Shown here piece after piece: positions 797-13,837 of a DNA stretch of 64,000 bases (positions are counted from its first letter, which is position 1; every line of letters starts with the position of its first letter). A model generated the notes under the pieces. It was not told the origin of the DNA, ran no database searches, and saw nothing but the letters and a program-made list of their open reading frames with translations. The position numbers and the translations under genes are program-made. The stretch lies in the sequence record OL960577.1. One strand, given 5' to 3'. The DNA comes from Escherichia phage vB_EcoM_SA35RD.

Positions 797-1222
797 TTAG
801 TAAATTGATTTACCATAGTATTTGTACCAAGTCGGACGTTGAGCAATTTTTTCATCTAAGCGTGCTTGACTTATCGCAATGGACGCTTCGGACGGGTCAT
901 AATTATTACGAAATTCGGCAGGGATGTCGGAAATATCCTGGACTGTCGTGTCCTTGATTTTGAAACCACGTTTCAAGCATTCAGCGATTAGCTCGATTTG
1001 ACGTAAACGTAAAAATTCGAGTTTGTCGTAAAAGAATGTTACGTGACCTGTGCCTAAGATAAATGTTGGAGAGATTTTAAAATCCTTTACACGTTTACCG
1101 TTTTGAACATGTTTACGGACTGCACCAAATACGCGTGGTAATTCACGATACTCAGCCATAAGATGTTGGTCGGACAGTTCAGAAACAAGTGTTAAATTGA
1201 TACGAGTCATAATTTCCTCCAA
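797..1222 (-). CDS. denV: endonuclease V, pyrimidine-dimer DNA glycosylase/AP lyase
   Basis: 141 aa; [12 protein letters not shown]...[16 protein letters not shown]...[22 protein letters not shown] is near-identical to T4 endonuclease V as recalled. Confidence 0.9.
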
Positions 1223-1550: not shown

Positions 1551-2035
1551 ATATACGCTTTCCAAGTTCCTGTTTTAAATGTTGAGATTACGCGTTTCGC
1601 GCGATTAGGTGTCTGACGATACCATTTAGATTGAGCTAGATTTACTGCCGCTTCATCCCAACGTTTCTGTTTAAGCATACGAAGAGAATTAGTAAAACCG
1701 GCGACTCCTGCTACACCCATTTGGAAGACCATATTGACCAATGCACACCGACGAACTGCATCTAAAGAATCATATACCGGTTTAAGTTTAGCATTACCCA
1801 AGATTCCGCGAACGGCTTTATCAACGTCTTCATTAAATAGCTTTTCAGCCTCATCAAGGGTAATTGTACCGTTGCATTTACGACCGATCATTCTGTCAAG
1901 TTCAGCTTTAGCTACGGCTAAAGACGGGTTCTTTGTTACCAAGTGGCCTATGCCAATCGTCCAAAAGCCTTCAGTGTCTTTGTATAAAGTCAGTCTAAGA
2001 CCTTCGTCATTACGAAGCATTTCAAATATATTCAT
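1547..2035 (-). CDS. e: lysozyme (endolysin), T4 gene e homolog
   Basis: [32 protein letters not shown]... aligns along full length with T4 lysozyme; ATG at 2035 with SD GGGAGG; the track's 2047 start is GTG. Confidence 0.95.
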
Positions 2036-2069: not shown

Positions 2070-2528
2070 TTATAGGATAGTAGTGAGCACCTTATATAAT
2101 GATTTGCCCATCACATATTCCCATTGAGAAGGTTTAATTAAAGCGAACGCATCAAATTCAGGAATCTGTCGTCCGTCTGGGAATGTATGATAGGAATTAC
2201 AAGCACTGTTTCTGAATTGCTCGTGCTCTACAGGGATGGTATATAGGAACAGATGAATATTCTTATTGTCTGAGTAATGATGTTCACCTAGGTCTTTCAG
2301 GAAGGCAGGGTCATATTGTGTAAACCCAGTTTCTTCTTCGCATTCGCGAATAGCGGCTTCAATAGGAGATTCACCGGGCTCGACACGTCCTTTAGGAATA
2401 TCCCAGCGATGAGCTAAAGAACCTTTAGGACGAGAACCAGTTACACGCCCCATGAATAATTCTTTATCTTCGGTAAGGAAAATAATACCGGCTGATAGTT
2501 CTTTCACTTTATTTTTCTTACTCATCAT
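2070..2528 (-). CDS. nudE: Nudix hydrolase (NudE/e.1-like)
   Basis: 152 aa; Nudix box GRVEPGESPIEAAIRECEEETG; position immediately upstream of e as in T4. Confidence 0.85.
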   Translation of the reverse strand: MMSKKNKVKELSAGIIFLTEDKELFMGRVTGSRPKGSLAHRWDIPKGRVEPGESPIEAAIRECEEETGFTQYDPAFLKDLGEHHYSDNKNIHLFLYTIPVEHEQFRNSACNSYHTFPDGRQIPEFDAFALIKPSQWEYVMGKSLYKVLTTIL

Positions 2529-2754
2529 CTCGGTCCCATGATTTGGCCATTAATTCGGACATAAATTCTTCAATGCGCGTTTCTTTAGATGGACTTTCAC
2601 TATTAGAGACCGCAAGTTTGTAATCTGCAATAGGACAGAACATATCAAGATCCGTATTAAGGTCGTCTTTGATTTTTTCTTCTGACACATCTTTATCGTA
2701 TGTGTACAGATAACTATCACATGATTCTGATTTAATGTAAATTGCTATACTCAT
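2518..2754 (-). CDS. hypothetical small acidic protein
   Basis: ORF; start chosen at ATG 2754 (MSIAIY), which overlaps the stop of the upstream gene as ATGA. Confidence 0.5.
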   Translation of the reverse strand: MSIAIYIKSESCDSYLYTYDKDVSEEKIKDDLNTDLDMFCPIADYKLAVSNSESPSKETRIEEFMSELMAKSWDRDDE

Positions 2755-3242
2755 CTCAAATTCCTGCATTCAGTAATAAAACATTCAACTTCGTTATTCT
2801 TGGCCTTTATCTTGTCTTTACGTTCCTGTAAACTACTTTTAACAAGATTAATAATGATGCCTACAGTACCTCCACCAATTATACCGCCAATTATACTTAC
2901 GATAGCAGATGCTAATAAGATAGCAATAATATCAACAAAACCGAAAGAACTCACCTTAGTACTAAAAAACCATACCGACGGTACAAATATAATCCATCCT
3001 GTTATCCATTGGCACTTATTGAAAAACTTTTCAAGATCAGCTTGAGTTGTTCGTATTACTTCATCGATAGGTTGATATCCATTAATGTATCTGTTCACGA
3101 TAATACCTGCTGGTTTGTCGATTTTAAATTCTTGGCAAATACGTTTCACTAAGTAGGATGGACATCCTGTCCAATCCACTGAATAGTACGAAATACCTTC
3201 ATTGCCGTCGTCAATATTAGACCAATATGTTTTGTTAATCAT
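2751..3242 (-). CDS. small membrane protein, FIxECR-tail family
   Basis: 163 aa; hydrophobic segments WIIFVPSVWFF and IIAILLASAIVSIIGGIIGGGTVGIII; C-terminus ECFITECRNLR. Confidence 0.6.
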   Translation of the reverse strand: MINKTYWSNIDDGNEGISYYSVDWTGCPSYLVKRICQEFKIDKPAGIIVNRYINGYQPIDEVIRTTQADLEKFFNKCQWITGWIIFVPSVWFFSTKVSSFGFVDIIAILLASAIVSIIGGIIGGGTVGIIINLVKSSLQERKDKIKAKNNEVECFITECRNLR

Positions 3243-3928
3243 TACCAGCCTTCCATAGGGAATTCCAGATAAACTTGGGCATTGACGCGAATTTCATTGG
3301 TAATCTTTTTAACTCGGTCTGTATTACGAGATACACGTCCGAACCAACGCCATCCATTACTAATTGCACGAGAACCAGTGTGCCATGTTTGCCAATCAAA
3401 CTGAAGAAGAGTACGGTCTGGAGCTTCCCATTTCTCTAGTTCGCCTTTTTCGATTTTTTCGAGGACTTCTTTGTGCCACTGGCGATAGATAAGTTCGCCA
3501 TCAGGAATCTGACTGAACTCTGCAGTTCCTGTTGCAAAATGAGTAGGACACACATCAGCGTTAACAAGACCAAGAATATGTTCAGACAAATAGCGAGGAT
3601 TGTCATAGTCAGGTTGTCCTGCAGTAATAAAATGTTGACCAACCGGAATATCCGGGCGTGGTACGTCATCATGGTGATAACCTGGGATAGCAGGATACCA
3701 ACCAGGCATCAGCATGTGGACTCGTGAATCAAATACAACCTGGTCGGTGTTCCAATCATCTGGCAAGTTCATAATGAAAGAGCGAGTAATAGGACCGCCG
3801 TTATTATAAGCAAATTCTAAACTACAGTTGAAGAACATAGGCTCGTTCTTGATTTTATCATTAGAAATACCGCCGGCAAAACCACCTACTGCACGAGCTT
3901 GACTATTAAACACTTTAGAACTATTCAT
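3242..3928 (-). CDS. hypothetical protein, 228 aa
   Basis: Long ORF with SD GAGGAAAA; no confidently recognised domain. Confidence 0.6.
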   Translation of the reverse strand: MNSSKVFNSQARAVGGFAGGISNDKIKNEPMFFNCSLEFAYNNGGPITRSFIMNLPDDWNTDQVVFDSRVHMLMPGWYPAIPGYHHDDVPRPDIPVGQHFITAGQPDYDNPRYLSEHILGLVNADVCPTHFATGTAEFSQIPDGELIYRQWHKEVLEKIEKGELEKWEAPDRTLLQFDWQTWHTGSRAISNGWRWFGRVSRNTDRVKKITNEIRVNAQVYLEFPMEGW

Positions 3929-3929
3929 A

Positions 3930-4235
3930 TTATTTTCCTCGACATTCTTTAATGAAATTTTCTAGATTGGTAGATTCAATAGCTTTTTTACGAGCTTCTG
4001 CGTGTTCTTCTTCGGACAATTTACGTTTATAATTGACCCAGACATTATGGTCGAAACCAGTCGTGGCATATAATAACAATGCTCCAACGAATAGCAAAAA
4101 CGGCGATAAGAATACAAAACCAGGAACACCATCCATATCGTAAGCCTTTTGTAATACTGCAACAGAAAGAGTTGCGTAAAAAGGTGATGCAAGTATTGTT
4201 AAAAGACCAATTCGATTGGTTTCTGTTAATTTCAT
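3930..4235 (-). CDS. small membrane protein, FIxECR-tail family
   Basis: 101 aa; two hydrophobic helices; C-terminus ENFIKECRGK; SD GAGGAG; early promoter at 4267..4296. Confidence 0.6.
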   Translation of the reverse strand: MKLTETNRIGLLTILASPFYATLSVAVLQKAYDMDGVPGFVFLSPFLLFVGALLLYATTGFDHNVWVNYKRKLSEEEHAEARKKAIESTNLENFIKECRGK

Positions 4236-4266
4236 AATATTCTCCTCATGTTTTAATAGGACTACT

Positions 4267-4296
4267 ACTATAACATAGTCCTATCAGTTTGTACAC
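4267..4296 (-). promoter_or_regulatory. early promoter cassette with palindrome around the -10 (PeSL-like)
   Basis: -35 GTGTAC, 18 bp, -10 TATAGT; 8-bp inverted repeat ATAGGACT/AGTCCTAT (4257..4264 and 4278..4285). Confidence 0.5.
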
Positions 4297-4497
4297 TTAT
4301 TTTGACATTTCTTCGATGTCACGACGATACCCATCACGAACTTCACGAAGAGCTTCAAGGCCACACATAGGCTCGATACCAGTAATGTGAACTTGATTAA
4401 TCTGATACTCTACATCTTCTAACTGAGCGAAAACATAACGACGTTCTGCTGCACAACCAGGTTTAGCTTTACCGAAACGTTTATTCAAAGTAGTCAT
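4297..4497 (-). CDS. hypothetical small protein
   Basis: Start at ATG 4497 (MTTLNKRFGK) with SD GGAG, downstream of early promoter 4536..4565. Confidence 0.45.
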   Translation of the reverse strand: MTTLNKRFGKAKPGCAAERRYVFAQLEDVEYQINQVHITGIEPMCGLEALREVRDGYRRDIEEMSK

Positions 4498-4535
4498 TTT
4501 TATATCTCCATTCACTCATTTGTTTTGATAGGTCT

Positions 4536-4565
4536 ATAGTATCAACAACTACAGACCTTGTAAAC
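4536..4565 (-). promoter_or_regulatory. early promoter cassette (PeSL-like)
   Basis: -35 GTTTAC, 18 bp, -10 TACTAT; flanking inverted repeat AGGTCT/AGACCT. Confidence 0.5.
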
Positions 4566-4577
4566 TGTTTTGTGAAA

Positions 4578-5534
4578 TTATTTGAAAGGTTTTACCATAT
4601 GAAAGTTTTGTTTGAAACGCTTGACGTAATCGTCGTGTCCTAAGCTTTGGTACATACTTACTACTTTGCTATAATTTTCCCAAGCGAACTCACGGAACCA
4701 TCCTGATGTGATTGATGTACAGACCTTTTCAAGGGCCATCATAAAACTATCACGTGGATGGATTTTAAAGTCGTTAGGAATCTGAGAACGTTCTAATGCT
4801 AGTACACATGATTCTTCATATACACCGGCCAATTTGACCATTTCTGGTAATGATTCGAACTTCTCGCGTGAGGTCATGACTTCAGAACCATCTTTCATGT
4901 AAAATGTATAAGCCGGACGGTCTGTTAGTGCAATAGCTTCGTGAATAGTATCATGGTCATATGTATAGATGTCATCTTTAAAGAACGCACTTTTAGAAGT
5001 GTCAAGAACAGGGTGAGCATAGTTCAAGGTTTCTTTCTGGCGTTTCAGCATAATTTCAGTAAGTTCATCGTTCAGTTTAACACCTTTACCACGAAGATAC
5101 TGAATATGGTTCATAGTCTTTAAAAAGAATGGATTATTTTTCTTGAAACGATGAGACATCTTAATTGCAAGACATATCTCAGGAGTTGCCCAGTAAAACC
5201 CGTTCAAACGGTCTTTAGTCAAATTTTTCTTGGCGTATTTTAAAAGGTCATAAGAAGACGTGAAATCTTCAGGAGTGAGTTCACCGACTAATTCACGGAC
5301 ACTAGTGATTGCCGGAACAATATATGCTTCAAAATGAGTTTCGCGTCCATTATGGAAGCATTTGAAAACTTGGACATCAGGGTTATCTTGGTGAACATAT
5401 ACACCCATCATTTGATTTTTGAATGCATTCCAAGAACCTTGGTCCGCAATAAAGTCCCAATCACTATTTTTAATAGCGCTAGAATCAATAAGACCGTGAT
5501 AGTGAAGTGCACGAGAACCAATAACTAACATCAT
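4578..5534 (-). CDS. hypothetical protein, possible nucleotidyltransferase fold
   Basis: 318 aa; N-terminal LVIGSRALHYHG...DWDF resembles the GS...DxD motif of Pol-beta-type nucleotidyltransferases (ANT-like); fold call is tentative. Confidence 0.65.
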   Translation of the reverse strand: MMLVIGSRALHYHGLIDSSAIKNSDWDFIADQGSWNAFKNQMMGVYVHQDNPDVQVFKCFHNGRETHFEAYIVPAITSVRELVGELTPEDFTSSYDLLKYAKKNLTKDRLNGFYWATPEICLAIKMSHRFKKNNPFFLKTMNHIQYLRGKGVKLNDELTEIMLKRQKETLNYAHPVLDTSKSAFFKDDIYTYDHDTIHEAIALTDRPAYTFYMKDGSEVMTSREKFESLPEMVKLAGVYEESCVLALERSQIPNDFKIHPRDSFMMALEKVCTSITSGWFREFAWENYSKVVSMYQSLGHDDYVKRFKQNFHMVKPFK

Positions 5535-5562
5535 AATATTTTCCTCGGATTAATTCATTAAC

Positions 5563-5802
5563 TTAAATTTCACGACATGCGATATTATATTCATCCCAGA
5601 GGTCATCATGTGAAGCCTCTACCAATGGAACGATTGTACCGTTTATGTCTTCATTATAAGGGCAAATTGTACAGTGCGCATCTTCGAATCGGATGCCTTT
5701 GTGTTCAGATTTTTTATAACGCATATCGAATATCTTTGCAAACTTTTCACGAGTAATGGTTTTACCAACCACTTTGGTTCCGATACTTTCGTAATAAATC
5801 AT
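5563..5802 (-). CDS. hypothetical small protein
   Basis: Start at ATG 5802 (MIYYES), which has SD GGAG; ends ...NIACREI; early promoter at 5831..5860. Confidence 0.5.
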   Translation of the reverse strand: MIYYESIGTKVVGKTITREKFAKIFDMRYKKSEHKGIRFEDAHCTICPYNEDINGTIVPLVEASHDDLWDEYNIACREI

Positions 5803-5830
5803 TGTGGACTCCATTTGTTTTGATAGGACT

Positions 5831-5860
5831 ACTATAACATAGCCCTATCTTGTTGTAAAC
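5831..5860 (-). promoter_or_regulatory. early promoter cassette (PeSL-like)
   Basis: -35 GTTTAC, 18 bp, -10 TATAGT; inverted repeat GATAGGGCT/AGTCCTATC around the -10. Confidence 0.5.
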
Positions 5861-5864
5861 TGTT

Positions 5865-6062
5865 TTAGCAAGAATAACTAGATGATACCCAGCCTTGAAC
5901 AGTGATACTATTGTGGGATAATGAGATCGCGTCCTGGAGATTCAGACCTGCGTTATCTTCAATCCATAATGTAACTTCTTCGCGTTCTTCTGTTGCAATT
6001 TGGAACAGGTTTTCCAGAGCAGCTACTGCCGTACGTACAGCACAATCTAATTCACGAGACAT
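5865..6062 (-). CDS. small protein, GWVSSS..C-tail family
   Basis: 65 aa; C-terminus QGWVSSSYSC; SD AAGGAA. Confidence 0.55.
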   Translation of the reverse strand: MSRELDCAVRTAVAALENLFQIATEEREEVTLWIEDNAGLNLQDAISLSHNSITVQGWVSSSYSC

Positions 6063-6071
6063 ATTGTTTCC

Positions 6072-6344
6072 TTAGCAAGTGTGAGAAGATGCGACCCAAC
6101 CACCAGTTTCGAGGCTCAGGTTGTAGTCGTATTGGTAAACGTCAGCCCATTCAGCATAGCCATTTTTTGTACAACGTTCAAGATCGGCTTTAAGATGTCC
6201 GGGTGAATGATAGGTTCCACCCATACCGTAAGCTGGATACAAGTCGAATGTTGTGTTTTGTTTATCAGCAATTTCTTTGGCAGCCTCAATAGCTGCATAG
6301 ATTTTTGCTACAGCTTCAGCCAGTTCGGTTTGTTCTTTAGACAT
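6072..6344 (-). CDS. small protein, GWVSSS..C-tail family
   Basis: 90 aa; C-terminus GGWVASSHTC; shares KEIAD...YG.GGTYH core with the next paralog. Confidence 0.6.
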   Translation of the reverse strand: MSKEQTELAEAVAKIYAAIEAAKEIADKQNTTFDLYPAYGMGGTYHSPGHLKADLERCTKNGYAEWADVYQYDYNLSLETGGWVASSHTC

Positions 6345-6353
6345 AATGATTCC

Positions 6354-6659
6354 TTAGCACAACGCAGAAGACGAAACCCAAGCACCTTCAGTAATAACGT
6401 AACCATTACCTTCACGCTTAACATCGCCACCATTATTTTCAATTTCATCTTTCATCCACTGGGATACGATTTCACCCTTAGGATAATAAGTACGACCGCT
6501 ACCATAATCACCTACAGAAAATGATACGGCATATTGGTCTGCGATCTTTGTTGCTTCTTCTTCGATACGTTCAGCTTGATTCAGAAGTTTATAAATTGCA
6601 TCTGAAGCGGATTTGGCATTATTAAACTCTGGTACTTTAATTTCAATAATCTTACTCAT
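6354..6659 (-). CDS. small protein, GWVSSS..C-tail family
   Basis: 101 aa; C-terminus GAWVSSSALC; ATG overlaps the upstream stop (ATGA). Confidence 0.6.
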   Translation of the reverse strand: MSKIIEIKVPEFNNAKSASDAIYKLLNQAERIEEEATKIADQYAVSFSVGDYGSGRTYYPKGEIVSQWMKDEIENNGGDVKREGNGYVITEGAWVSSSALC

Positions 6660-7015
6660 TTTCTACATTCCTTAATAAAGTTTTCGATTGTTTCATTTTC
6701 ACGTCTAGCTAGGAGTTCATTATAACTAATCATTTGAGAAGCGTAAACCTTTTTATTTTTCTTGTTATGGTTTATAAAATCGTAGTAAAAATAGACTACA
6801 GTACAAAATGATGCGATGGATGCAAAGGCTTGGGTATACCGTAAGTCCTGCCATTGGTCTGTGAATCCACCAGTGTTCCCTATAAATCCTAACACAACGC
6901 CGTCAATAAGAAATCCAACTAATCCAAAGGCAAATCCCATGCCAATACTCATAATAAAAATTAGAATGTTCTCACCAAGAGAAGGCCATACGGTTAAGAG
7001 TTGAGGCTTTTGCAT
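6656..7015 (-). CDS. small membrane protein, FIxECR-tail family
   Basis: 119 aa; hydrophobic helices; C-terminus IENFIKECRK. Confidence 0.6.
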   Translation of the reverse strand: MQKPQLLTVWPSLGENILIFIMSIGMGFAFGLVGFLIDGVVLGFIGNTGGFTDQWQDLRYTQAFASIASFCTVVYFYYDFINHNKKNKKVYASQMISYNELLARRENETIENFIKECRK

Positions 7016-7389
7016 CTTATTTCCTTAACGAATTCCATAGCTTCTTCATATTCATACTTTTTAATAGCTTCATCATACTGAGCTTGGGCTTTTGCGCACT
7101 GAACTTTCCATTCTCTTAATCGGGCTCTGTGATGACGGCCTTGGTGCCAATATCCCACCCAATTAATAGGCATTAATAAAAACGGTACAATAAGTGGTGC
7201 GACGAACATTAATGAAAATGCTGCATCAGACGATATAACTTCACTAGAATCTAAAACAGCTCCTATAATCATAAAGATTAAAAATGCTAAAGCTAAAATA
7301 GGGCCAAATAGTACTTCATTTGGGATTAATTTACGCTTGTATTCATACGCCCAGGGCTTACTTGGCATGTATAGGGTTGGCTTTGACAT
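6994..7389 (-). CDS. small membrane protein, FIxECR-like tail
   Basis: Start at ATG 7389 (MSKPTLY) directly after the conserved GAATGTAGAGAAT junction motif; two hydrophobic helices; tail MEFVKEIRCK. Confidence 0.55.
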   Translation of the reverse strand: MSKPTLYMPSKPWAYEYKRKLIPNEVLFGPILALAFLIFMIIGAVLDSSEVISSDAAFSLMFVAPLIVPFLLMPINWVGYWHQGRHHRARLREWKVQCAKAQAQYDEAIKKYEYEEAMEFVKEIRCKSLNS

Positions 7390-7954
7390 ATTCTCTACAT
7401 TCCATAATAAATTGCTCAAGGATTAAATTGTTAGTGAAATTAGGACTAACAACCATAGTTTCATAAAGCGCATCAATAGCACTTAAAGCATCAACTCTTT
7501 TAAGCAAAGGCTTGCCTTCATACATAGTTTCAGAATCGACGATTAAAGTGAAGTAGTATTTTTTATTATTGGCCAGAACTTCTGTATCAATATAAAACAT
7601 GTTAGACCTTAAAAGCTTGTCTCTAAAGCCTACGTAATCATCTGAACGTTCACTGATATATTCCCATTCGGTGTTTAAACAACAAACAGACCACGTAGGA
7701 GCAACGAAATCAGTGAATCTAATATCATGGTCTGCAACTAGTTTAGCAATAGCTCCGATATCATGAATCATAATACCTGGGGCTAATAAAGATTTTCGGT
7801 TATTTGCATATTCAGTTGTCTCATAAGAAGACGACCAGTACCATTTACGTCCAGTTGCAACATATCGTAATGAATCAACTAAAGACGTAGGTGGATTTAC
7901 CTTATCTCGGAACTCTTCGAACATTGAGTCAATATCATTATTTTGGTTTCGCAT
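7358..7954 (-). CDS. hypothetical protein with FIxECR motif near C-terminus
   Basis: Start at ATG 7954 with SD AAGGAG; ...EQFIMECREYVKANPIHAK; 3' end overlaps the next gene by 32 nt. Confidence 0.6.
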   Translation of the reverse strand: MRNQNNDIDSMFEEFRDKVNPPTSLVDSLRYVATGRKWYWSSSYETTEYANNRKSLLAPGIMIHDIGAIAKLVADHDIRFTDFVAPTWSVCCLNTEWEYISERSDDYVGFRDKLLRSNMFYIDTEVLANNKKYYFTLIVDSETMYEGKPLLKRVDALSAIDALYETMVVSPNFTNNLILEQFIMECREYVKANPIHAK

Positions 7955-7973
7955 GTTAACTCCTTTATTATCC

Positions 7974-7995
7974 AAAAGGAGGACCGGGGTCCTCC
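7974..7995 (-). terminator. rho-independent terminator
   Basis: GGAGGAC-CGGG-GTCCTCC hairpin followed by TTTT on the minus strand, just after the stop of the 8004..8597 gene. Confidence 0.6.
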
Positions 7996-8003
7996 GTATT
8001 ATT

Positions 8004-8597
8004 TTATTTCAAAGAGTTAATATATTCTTGTACATCAGCAGAAGTGGTTTCGACACCTGCTGGAGTGCCATTGAACGTTTCAACCCGAGTCAGAGTGTCT
8101 TCGATATCAACCTTAGTCAGTGCAGCGATTTCAATTACATCATCGGCCGTAGAGATACCAAGGGCATTAGCTGCTCGAGTTTCACGAATGTATTCGAGTT
8201 TGATTGCCAGATTCTGACGAGCATCATCAAGTTCAACCACCTTACGAGCAATTTCAATTCGCATAGCGGCATACCCGTCAGCTTTTGTATTAAGTTGTTC
8301 GGCAGTTCGACGATACAGAAGACCAAGCTTAGCATGCATGGTAACATCTTGTCCTTCAGCCAGGAGCTTACGAATTTCACGTTCCTTAGAAGCGGCTTGC
8401 TTGTTCTTTTCAATAACAAGTTCGCGAATACGTTTTTCTTCATTAATAGATTTAACAGAAGCCGTTTTTAGTTCTTTGATTTGGGTAATCAACTTATCTG
8501 CAGCTGCGTTATACTGTTCTTCGACAGTCAGATTTTTAGCCATAGCAGTACCCAGTTTAGTGCGAATGAATTCAACAAGTTTCTTCAGTGTGTTCAT
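8004..8597 (-). CDS. coiled-coil protein, PspA/IM30-like (tentative)
   Basis: 197 aa; heptad-rich and Ala/Glu/Lys/Arg-rich; layout resembles PspA as recalled; early promoter at 8639..8668; terminator at 7974..7995. Confidence 0.6.
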
Positions 8598-11122: not shown

Positions 11123-11199
<77 letters not shown>

Positions 11200-11205
11200 A
11201 ATATA

Positions 11206-11279
11206 TGACCCAGACCAGATTCGAACTGGTAACCTTTCCCTTATGAGGGGACTGCTGCTAACCATTGAGCTACAGGGCC
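11206..11279 (-). tRNA. tRNA with anticodon CAU (Ile2 or Met type), no encoded CCA
   Basis: Manual fold: acceptor GGCCCTG/CTGGGTC (one U-U mismatch), anticodon loop CTCATAA, T-arm ACCAG-TTCGAAT-CTGGT; D-stem only 3 bp, so slightly irregular. Confidence 0.6.

Positions 11280-13151: not shown

Positions 13152-13837
<686 letters not shown>

Follow-up and report, generated by a model that had tools for sequence, protein, structure and literature searches.

A predicted Pol-beta-type nucleotidyltransferase with a conserved helical second lobe, from an essentially phage-only family, in Escherichia phage vB_EcoM_SA35RD

We analysed a window of 64,000 nucleotides (nt) from Escherichia phage vB_EcoM_SA35RD (OL960577.1), a T4-type phage of the genus Mosigvirus (RB69-like); all coordinates refer to this window. 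An earlier note had singled out an open reading frame (ORF) of 318 amino acids (aa) at 4578-5534, without giving its strand, as an early protein with a possible Pol-beta-type nucleotidyltransferase (NTase) motif. The ORF proved to be real, with an ATG start on the minus strand, and it was indeed far bigger than its neighbours, being the longest ORF of the first 12 kb beside real neighbours of 65-228 aa. The Pol-beta-type reading was supported by conserved catalytic residues and a predicted NTase fold, and the protein is very probably an active NTase. Conservation was counted over 151 sequences, comprising the window protein and 150 representatives, one per 50%-identity cluster, these being the best 150 of at least 1,592 clusters. 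The gene and the conserved elements of its product are listed below.

4578..5534, minus strand: complete NTase ORF, 318 aa plus stop codon (4578-4580), ATG start; Pfam DUF7277 and DUF7275, PHROG 2141.
5542..5546, minus strand: Shine-Dalgarno sequence GAGGA, read from the sequence, 7 nt upstream of the ATG.
5220..5534, minus strand: N-lobe, residues 1-105, a minimal Pol-beta-type NTase core (DUF7277) in the predicted structure.
5514..5519, minus strand: G6-S7, the hG[GS] motif; G6 in 150/151 sequences (a gap in the other), position 7 S in 146 and G in 3.
5451..5462, minus strand: D25-W26-D27-F28, the [DE]h[DE]h motif (D25-W-D27 at 5454-5462), at the start of predicted strand 26-31; position 25 D in 149 and E in 2, D27 in 151/151.
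5328..5330, minus strand: E69, candidate third catalytic carboxylate (h[DE]h; F68-E69-A70) on predicted beta-strand 64-73; E in 133 and D in 16 of 151.
4581..5219, minus strand: C-lobe, residues 106-318, all-alpha (DUF7275), without a convincing solved structural relative.
5103..5162, minus strand: K125-x2-H128-R129 ... K139-T140-x2-[D/H]143-I144, first two C-lobe helices; K125, H128, and K139 each in 151/151, position 143 D in 137, H in 9, and T in 2, with His in the window protein.
4941..4955, minus strand: H194-D195-T-I-H198, the HDxxH motif, with which helix 194-201 opens; H194, D195, and H198 each in 151/151 and invariant in the short forms of the family at 28-36% identity.
4788..4817, minus strand: E240-E241 ... 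E248-R249 on the long helix 231-254; each in 151/151 and invariant in the short forms.
4692..4721, minus strand: C272-T-S-I-T-S-G-W-F-R281, the stretch where conservation within the family is highest.

The N-terminus had been quoted exactly as MMLVIGSRALHYHG...SDWDF, and with positions assigned it reads MMLVI-G6-S7-RALHYHGLIDSSAIKNS-D25-W-D27-F, leaving 17 aa between S7 and D25. The motif by itself is only weak evidence, because the pattern h-G-[GS]-x(9-20)-D-h-[DE]-h arose by chance in 1.2% of shuffles of the 318-aa protein and occurred in 2 of the 98 long six-frame ORFs of the window. It was raised above chance by its conservation across the 151 sequences, among which the candidate catalytic positions varied only within the set allowed by the Pol-beta signature. 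The earlier note had made the NTase idea depend on GS and DxD being kept in homologues and had asked after a third acidic residue. Both residue sets were conserved in the 151 sequences and were invariant also in the short forms at 28-36% identity, while E69, occupied by E or D in 149/151, provided the third acidic residue on a predicted beta-strand. In the predicted structure the N-lobe runs in the order beta 2-5, helix 7-12, beta 26-31, helix 32-41, beta 45-47, beta 54-61, beta 64-73, and helices 75-82 and 93-104. The hG[GS] motif thus falls where strand 2-5 gives way to helix 7-12, the following strand carries [DE]h[DE]h, and a later strand carries the third carboxylate, all within a predicted alpha/beta NTase fold of the Pol-beta type.

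The N-terminal motif of the earlier note therefore stood, but the note had overlooked that two thirds of the protein form a separate helical lobe (DUF7275), which is better conserved than the catalytic lobe. Mean column conservation was 0.68 in the C-lobe versus 0.39 in the N-lobe, and the C-lobe contained 11 invariant charged or His residues. In Pfam, DUF7277 matched residues 2-101 (E 8.7e-28, 97.3 bits) and DUF7275 residues 120-305 (E 9.3e-80, 267.4 bits), both well over the curated cut-off of 27. The two domains occurred together in 150/150 of the representatives listed, in proteins of ~300 aa. Shuffling of DUF7275 among proteins was considered and rejected; the sole exception was P0054, a single 3,050-bp contig on which a lipoprotein-like DUF1190 N-terminus fused to DUF7275 replaces the NTase lobe, which would reflect an uncommon exchange of domains or else a chimeric assembly.

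Co-variation between residues was examined by direct coupling analysis (DCA), which at an effective number of ~200 sequences had low power and was used as a hint only. The pair D96-K164 (rank 5) joined helix 93-104 to helix 156-169. Weaker pairs, I5-T273 (rank 71), N23-L147, and Y71-K131/I124, linked neighbours of the catalytic positions with the K125 helix and the CTSITSG loop, and the first of them put the C272-R281 stretch near the catalytic sheet. The high predicted template-modelling score of the model together with this low-powered co-variation suggests that the two lobes form one compact unit, in which conserved C-lobe elements would face the catalytic sheet.

The best structural matches of the model were the DUF1814 (AbiEii/MenT) toxins MenT1 (8an4), MenT3/TglT (6j7n), and MenT4 (6y56). 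DUF1814 enzymes are bi-lobed, with a beta-sheet NTase lobe followed by a helical lobe, and their activity is to extend the acceptor ends of tRNAs by nucleotides (PMC10435456). Both have GS and DxD unusually far apart, with a spacer of 17 aa in the 318-aa protein and 15 in AbiEii compared to the usual 9-13 (PMC3985639). Motif III of DUF1814 is a Lys flanked by hydrophobic residues (KLxAaxxR) and motif IV is +DxxD (PMC3985639, PMC10435456). By sequence comparison alone, the former would correspond to L-A-I-K125-M-S-H-R129 on the first C-lobe helix, with an invariant K and a K-to-R spacing of 4 instead of 7. The spacing K125...D143 is 18 in the phage family, and the K-to-D spacings of MenT1, MenT3, and MenT4 are 15-22 (PMC10435456). 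The two helices from K125 to position 143 are candidate equivalents of motifs III and IV and likely contact the nucleoside triphosphate (NTP).

There were also differences from DUF1814. The +DxxD pentad was absent, the family having K139-T-M-x followed by position 143 without a second Asp. No DUF1814 hidden Markov model (HMM) or AbiE model matched at E values up to 10 in Pfam and PADLOC, and no MenT protein was found in the profile search of PDB sequences. A cognate antitoxin gene (AbiEi/MenA) was not found adjacent to the NTase gene, where the neighbouring ORFs had no Pfam matches and were kept only in close T4-like relatives. Unlike the helical lobe of the DUF1814 toxins, the C-lobe of ~210 aa is not a four-helix bundle, and the invariant HDxxH/EE/ER cluster is not among the four listed DUF1814 motifs. 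The family is carried by virulent phages, whereas DUF1814 toxins come from bacterial toxin-antitoxin loci. By the tests run on HMM matches, the +DxxD pentad, and an antitoxin gene, the 318-aa protein is not a DUF1814 member.

A further comparison concerned RlaP (PF10127; T4 NrdC.11), likewise a phage-borne two-lobed Pol-beta NTase, which adds one or two nucleoside monophosphates (NMPs; 1-2) to RNA 3'-OH ends (bioRxiv 10.64898/2025.12.29.696909). It is a plausible functional analogue of the 318-aa protein. Membership of the RlaP family was rejected: T4 NrdC.11 matched PF10127 (E 4.6e-12) and the 318-aa protein did not, and hhalign of the family profile versus NrdC.11 gave a probability of 0.09%.

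The family to which the protein belongs is large. The 318-aa protein matched PHROG 2141 (E 1.5e-150), which like DUF7277 and DUF7275 is a family of unknown function. The family was found in 732 phage genome records, forming 2,241 clusters at 90% identity and, with E values no higher than 0.001, at least 1,592 at 50% identity. Of the latter, the 150 best were all of ~300 aa, and nearly all matched almost the whole profile length. Carriers of this long form included T4-like phages of Escherichia, Klebsiella, Serratia, Yersinia, Aeromonas, and Acinetobacter, phAPEC8-like phages, and Pseudomonas Otagovirus, and short forms of ~250 aa (PHROG 6944) were seen in phages of Streptomyces, Gordonia, Mycobacterium, and Vibrio. 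Among close relatives, phiC120 gp244, labelled 'hypothetical protein', was 99% identical and the version of Dhakavirus MN04 74% identical; no homologue was found in T4 itself. Database records labelled the proteins 'hypothetical' except for a few mutually inconsistent structural-protein names and two 'nucleotidyltransferase' entries. Cellular homologues were sought with two peptide patterns in one genome each from 185,579 bacterial and archaeal species; the only five loci were all phage-like contigs of metagenome bins, a scan from which distant cellular relatives could escape. From these sequence searches the family appears essentially phage-only. No literature on it was found under its DUF, PHROG, or accession names or under 'MenT-like'.

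The gene order around the NTase gene, on the minus strand, was set by comparison with T4 proteins and placed the gene in a variable block between nudE and e.3.

800-1210, minus strand: denV.
1553-2035, minus strand: e.
2073-2510, minus strand: nudE.
2518-6659, minus strand: variable block with the NTase gene, between nudE and e.3; missing from T4, which has only e.2 there.
5563-5814, minus strand: 83-aa ORF preceding the NTase gene.
5860-5831, minus strand: early-type sigma-70 promoter-like site GTTTACA-N17-TATAGT with TG, a consensus match preceding the 83-aa ORF.
6659-8597, minus strand: e.3, e.4, e.5, and e.6.
11123-11279: two tRNA genes (Arg-tct, Met-cat), followed by trna.2, trna.3, and ipI.
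13155-13610: 57B/Acb1, 84% identical to T4 57B, followed by 57A and gene 1.

The NTase gene is the second gene behind the promoter-like site at 5860-5831, which would drive the 83-aa ORF and then the NTase gene. Neither a MotA box nor a late-promoter motif turned up in the variable block. The description of the protein as early is therefore plausible, judged from consensus matches alone. The Acb1-like gene that the earlier note had placed in the same region is real, being the T4 57B homologue 7.6 kb from the NTase gene. The tRNA region holds only its two genes, where T4 has eight together with two small stable RNAs.

Several small minus-strand ORFs of this region were recorded in their own right. 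A 72-aa ORF (4297-4565) lies between the NTase gene and the next gene and has its own early-type promoter-like site (GTTTACA-N17-TACTAT, 4565-4536) directly after the NTase gene; because it is missing in the otherwise collinear phiC120, it looks like a small recent insertion. Two genes downstream of the NTase gene, a 228-aa ORF (3242-3928) without a Pfam match was 92-93% conserved in phiC120 and Dhakavirus MN04, whereas the NTase of MN04 was only 74% identical. Upstream of the operon, three tandem ORFs of 65, 90, and 101 aa (5865-6062, 6072-6344, and 6354-6659) had a common C-terminal motif G-x-W-V-[SA]-S-S-x-x-C (GWVSSSYSC, GGWVASSHTC, and GAWVSSSALC). They look like a paralogous array, gave no significant Pfam match, and were kept in phiC120 and Dhakavirus MN04. 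Another five (2751-3242, 3930-4235, 6656-7015, 6994-7419, and 7358-7975) ended in a motif of the type F-[IV]-x-E-C-R (CFITECRNLR, NFIKECRGK, NFIKECRK, EFVKEIRCK, and QFIMECREY); of these, the final three are homologous to T4 e.3, e.4, and e.5, and several of the five have hydrophobic stretches and are apparently membrane-spanning.

The neighbourhood of the family was then compared across lineages, using 130 neighbouring ORFs from 11 diverse loci in a pooled Pfam scan and an all-against-all BLAST. The recurrent Pfam neighbours were DNA ligase (4 ORFs), DnaB-type helicase (3), NamPT (2 loci), and RNA ligase (2 ORFs). The first three of these were non-specific, and the idea of a conserved operon partner of the long form was rejected, none being found across lineages. 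Within 4.5 kb of the gene in other lineages lay an RNA ligase, a 3'-5' exoribonuclease-like gene, and, by PHROG, another NTase in 2 loci. tRNA clusters were nearby in 3/13 loci including this window, which was not convincing as a clue. On two metagenomic phage-like contigs (L015, 7467-11610, and L014, 6629-9323) the homologue adjoins NamPT, and on L015 NamPT is itself adjoined by a 322-aa protein that has a Nudix domain at its C-terminus, after which come a 3'-5' exoribonuclease resembling Rv2179c and an ATP-dependent DNA ligase.

Every short form examined, from phages of Streptomyces, Mycobacterium, and Gordonia and two of Vibrio, was immediately flanked by 1-5 tandem copies of a small family, phrog_8206/18295/13591 (L006 3130-3825, L007 4501-6413, L008 4872-5794, L009 4611-4973, and L010 3360-3650), with the motif GGEGQG..W.VFKI.D..RYFRK.G.Y.SY.G..YDG..EEV.P..KTITV. 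This small protein may work together with the short forms. The family was absent from the window and from the long-form loci, and the idea that it supplies a missing part of the N-lobe in trans was rejected (hhalign probability 0.06%).

From these results we tentatively favour a reading in which the protein is an active Mg2+-dependent Pol-beta NTase of DUF1814-like build that transfers NMP to an acceptor in an early accessory role. In such an enzyme G6-S7 would hold the NTP phosphates, and D25, D27, and E69 would bind two metal ions. The C-lobe would be packed firmly on the N-lobe, with K125, H128, R129, and K139 completing the NTP site, and its His/Asp/Glu cluster (H194-D195-x2-H198, E240, E241, and E248-R249) would bind and position the acceptor. 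One or a few NMPs would then be transferred from NTP to an acceptor hydroxyl, most likely an RNA 3'-OH such as a tRNA acceptor end. Provided that the enzyme is active, an RNA 3' end is a possible acceptor by analogy with the nearest structural relatives and with the motif layout, and we hold this choice with reserve. The RNA-related and end-processing genes near the gene in other lineages, and the tRNA clusters, would fit it. Synthesis early in infection would serve an accessory function, host-directed or counter-defensive. The only hints of the conceivable role against host immunity raised in the earlier note come from the phage-only family, the variable accessory block, and the NAD-salvage, ADP-ribosyltransferase, Nudix, and ligase neighbours in other lineages.

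Several points weigh against this reading. A profile of 41 homologues found no relative among PDB sequences, only a spurious PsaB match. Searches of Pfam, NCBIfam, and PADLOC that admitted E values as high as 10 yielded, apart from the two DUFs, a single weak match to hisJ (E 0.013), which was spurious. The Asp that resembles motif IV varies within the family and is replaced by His143 in the window protein. The isoelectric point (pI) of the family is near neutral (median 6.0), which does not favour the binding of a long polyanion, and MenT-like action on bulk tRNA would also hurt the phage's own translation. The genomic context is inconsistent, with DNA ligase, helicase, thymidylate synthase, and NAD-salvage neighbours as frequent as RNA-related ones. 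Finally, the small-molecule enzymes ANT(2'')-Ia (4xje) and LnuA (4wh5) scored almost as high as the MenT enzymes in structure comparison.

A serious, though rather doubtful, alternative is that the protein is a small-molecule NTase like ANT(2'') or LnuA, with the C-lobe forming a pocket for a small, universally conserved acceptor that nucleotidylation would inactivate or convert. Candidate acceptors would be a metabolite or an immune signal derived from nucleotides, such as NAD+ or ADP-ribose derivatives, alarmones, and oligonucleotides of cyclic or linear form, or else an antibiotic-like compound. The near-neutral pI and a C-lobe that stays extremely conserved from host to host fit this idea, as do the NAD/ADP-ribose-related genes found nearby in 5/12 lineages (nudE in the window, an ADP-ribosyltransferase, SIR2, and NamPT in two loci, one with the Nudix-domain protein), but such a context would fit a general nucleotide-metabolism or replication module equally. 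The MenT enzymes were the better structural matches, and no HMM similarity to the ANT, Lnu, or KNTase families was found. With ANT(2'')-Ia and LnuA ~113-117 residues of the core aligned without sequence similarity, and these enzymes, at 158-175 aa, have nothing like the large conserved C-lobe. A different use of that lobe, as an independent metal-dependent phosphohydrolase in which HDxxH and Glu residues bind Zn, Mn, or Fe, would make the protein bifunctional, coupling for example the healing of RNA 3' ends, by removal of a phosphate, a pyrophosphate, or surplus nucleotides, to their re-extension by the NTase. Bacterial CCA-adding enzymes pair an HD domain with end repair and re-extension, yet we consider this reading improbable. 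The specific idea of an HD, PDE, or PHP phosphohydrolase, which had come from HDxxH and the hisJ match, was rejected when the domain-only model showed no such fold; neither the helical HD-domain fold nor its H...HD...D metal ligands were found in the C-lobe.

A role in signalling, with the enzyme making an oligonucleotide, cyclic or linear, as a competitor or mimic of the immune messengers of the host, has a precedent in the minimal Pol-beta NTases of phages BCP1 and Av05, which are proposed to act against defence and are reported to make 3'3'-cGAMP as a TIR-STING competitor (bioRxiv 10.1101/2022.06.09.495361, Ho et al.). GS-x-A and SDxD (here SDWD) are common to those enzymes and the 318-aa protein, and an Acb1 homologue lies 7.6 kb away; we nevertheless regard this role as very improbable. 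Assignment to the cGAS/CD-NTase family or to the phage family of Ho et al. was rejected, the protein having neither the GS-x-AY[GAN]T-x4-SDxD spacing nor NP-x-hh[DE] nor a cGAS-like fold. Still less weight falls on modification of a protein, by AMPylation or NMPylation of a host protein for takeover or to neutralise a defence effector. Minimal Pol-beta-type NTases are able to modify proteins (MNT-HEPN systems, in which MntA acts on the HEPN toxin), T4-type phages modify host proteins early by ADP-ribosylation, and the gene lies in an early accessory region. However no MNT-type enzyme was among the top structural matches, and the C-lobe is conserved from actinophages to T4-like phages, unlike what a host-specific protein target would suggest. 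That the ORF is mis-called, or encodes a catalytically inactive NTase-fold protein with a structural or binding role, is extremely improbable. Apart from the few database records naming a capsid, scaffold, or baseplate protein nothing specific spoke for it, and these names are mutually inconsistent, have no HMM behind them, and stand against a full catalytic triad in at least 149/151 diverse sequences and the presence of the family in 732 phage records.

Pol-beta NTases are central to the conflict between phages and bacteria, where they act as cGAS-like signalling enzymes, AbiE/MenT toxins, RlaP, CCA-adding repair enzymes, and phage enzymes whose products are competitor dinucleotides. The superfamily was already known, the present family had been catalogued as two DUFs, and a few annotators use 'nucleotidyltransferase' for it. 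New are the complete catalytic signature and the predicted MenT-like fold in a very large phage-only family with hosts from E. coli to Streptomyces, together with a dominant, orphan, and highly conserved second lobe, the lack of an antitoxin, and the lack of literature. It is unlikely that the family is a phage-exclusive branch of the MenT/AbiEii toxin fold recruited by viruses, its orphan C-lobe with the invariant His/Asp/Glu centre giving a new acceptor specificity or a second catalytic activity, and that editing of the 3' ends of tRNA or RNA, or nucleotidylation of an immune signal of oligonucleotide or NAD/ADP-ribose-derived type, disarms a widespread bacterial defence. If true, large phages would have an enzymatic counter-defence of a new class, spread over at least 1,592 sequence clusters. 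If the substrate is ordinary, as in redundant repair of RNA ends, the result would be a useful annotation and little else. Identification of the substrate would assign a role to a gene that hundreds of sequenced phage genomes carry, and would reveal how viruses use an enzyme fold that serves bacteria as an abortive-infection toxin.

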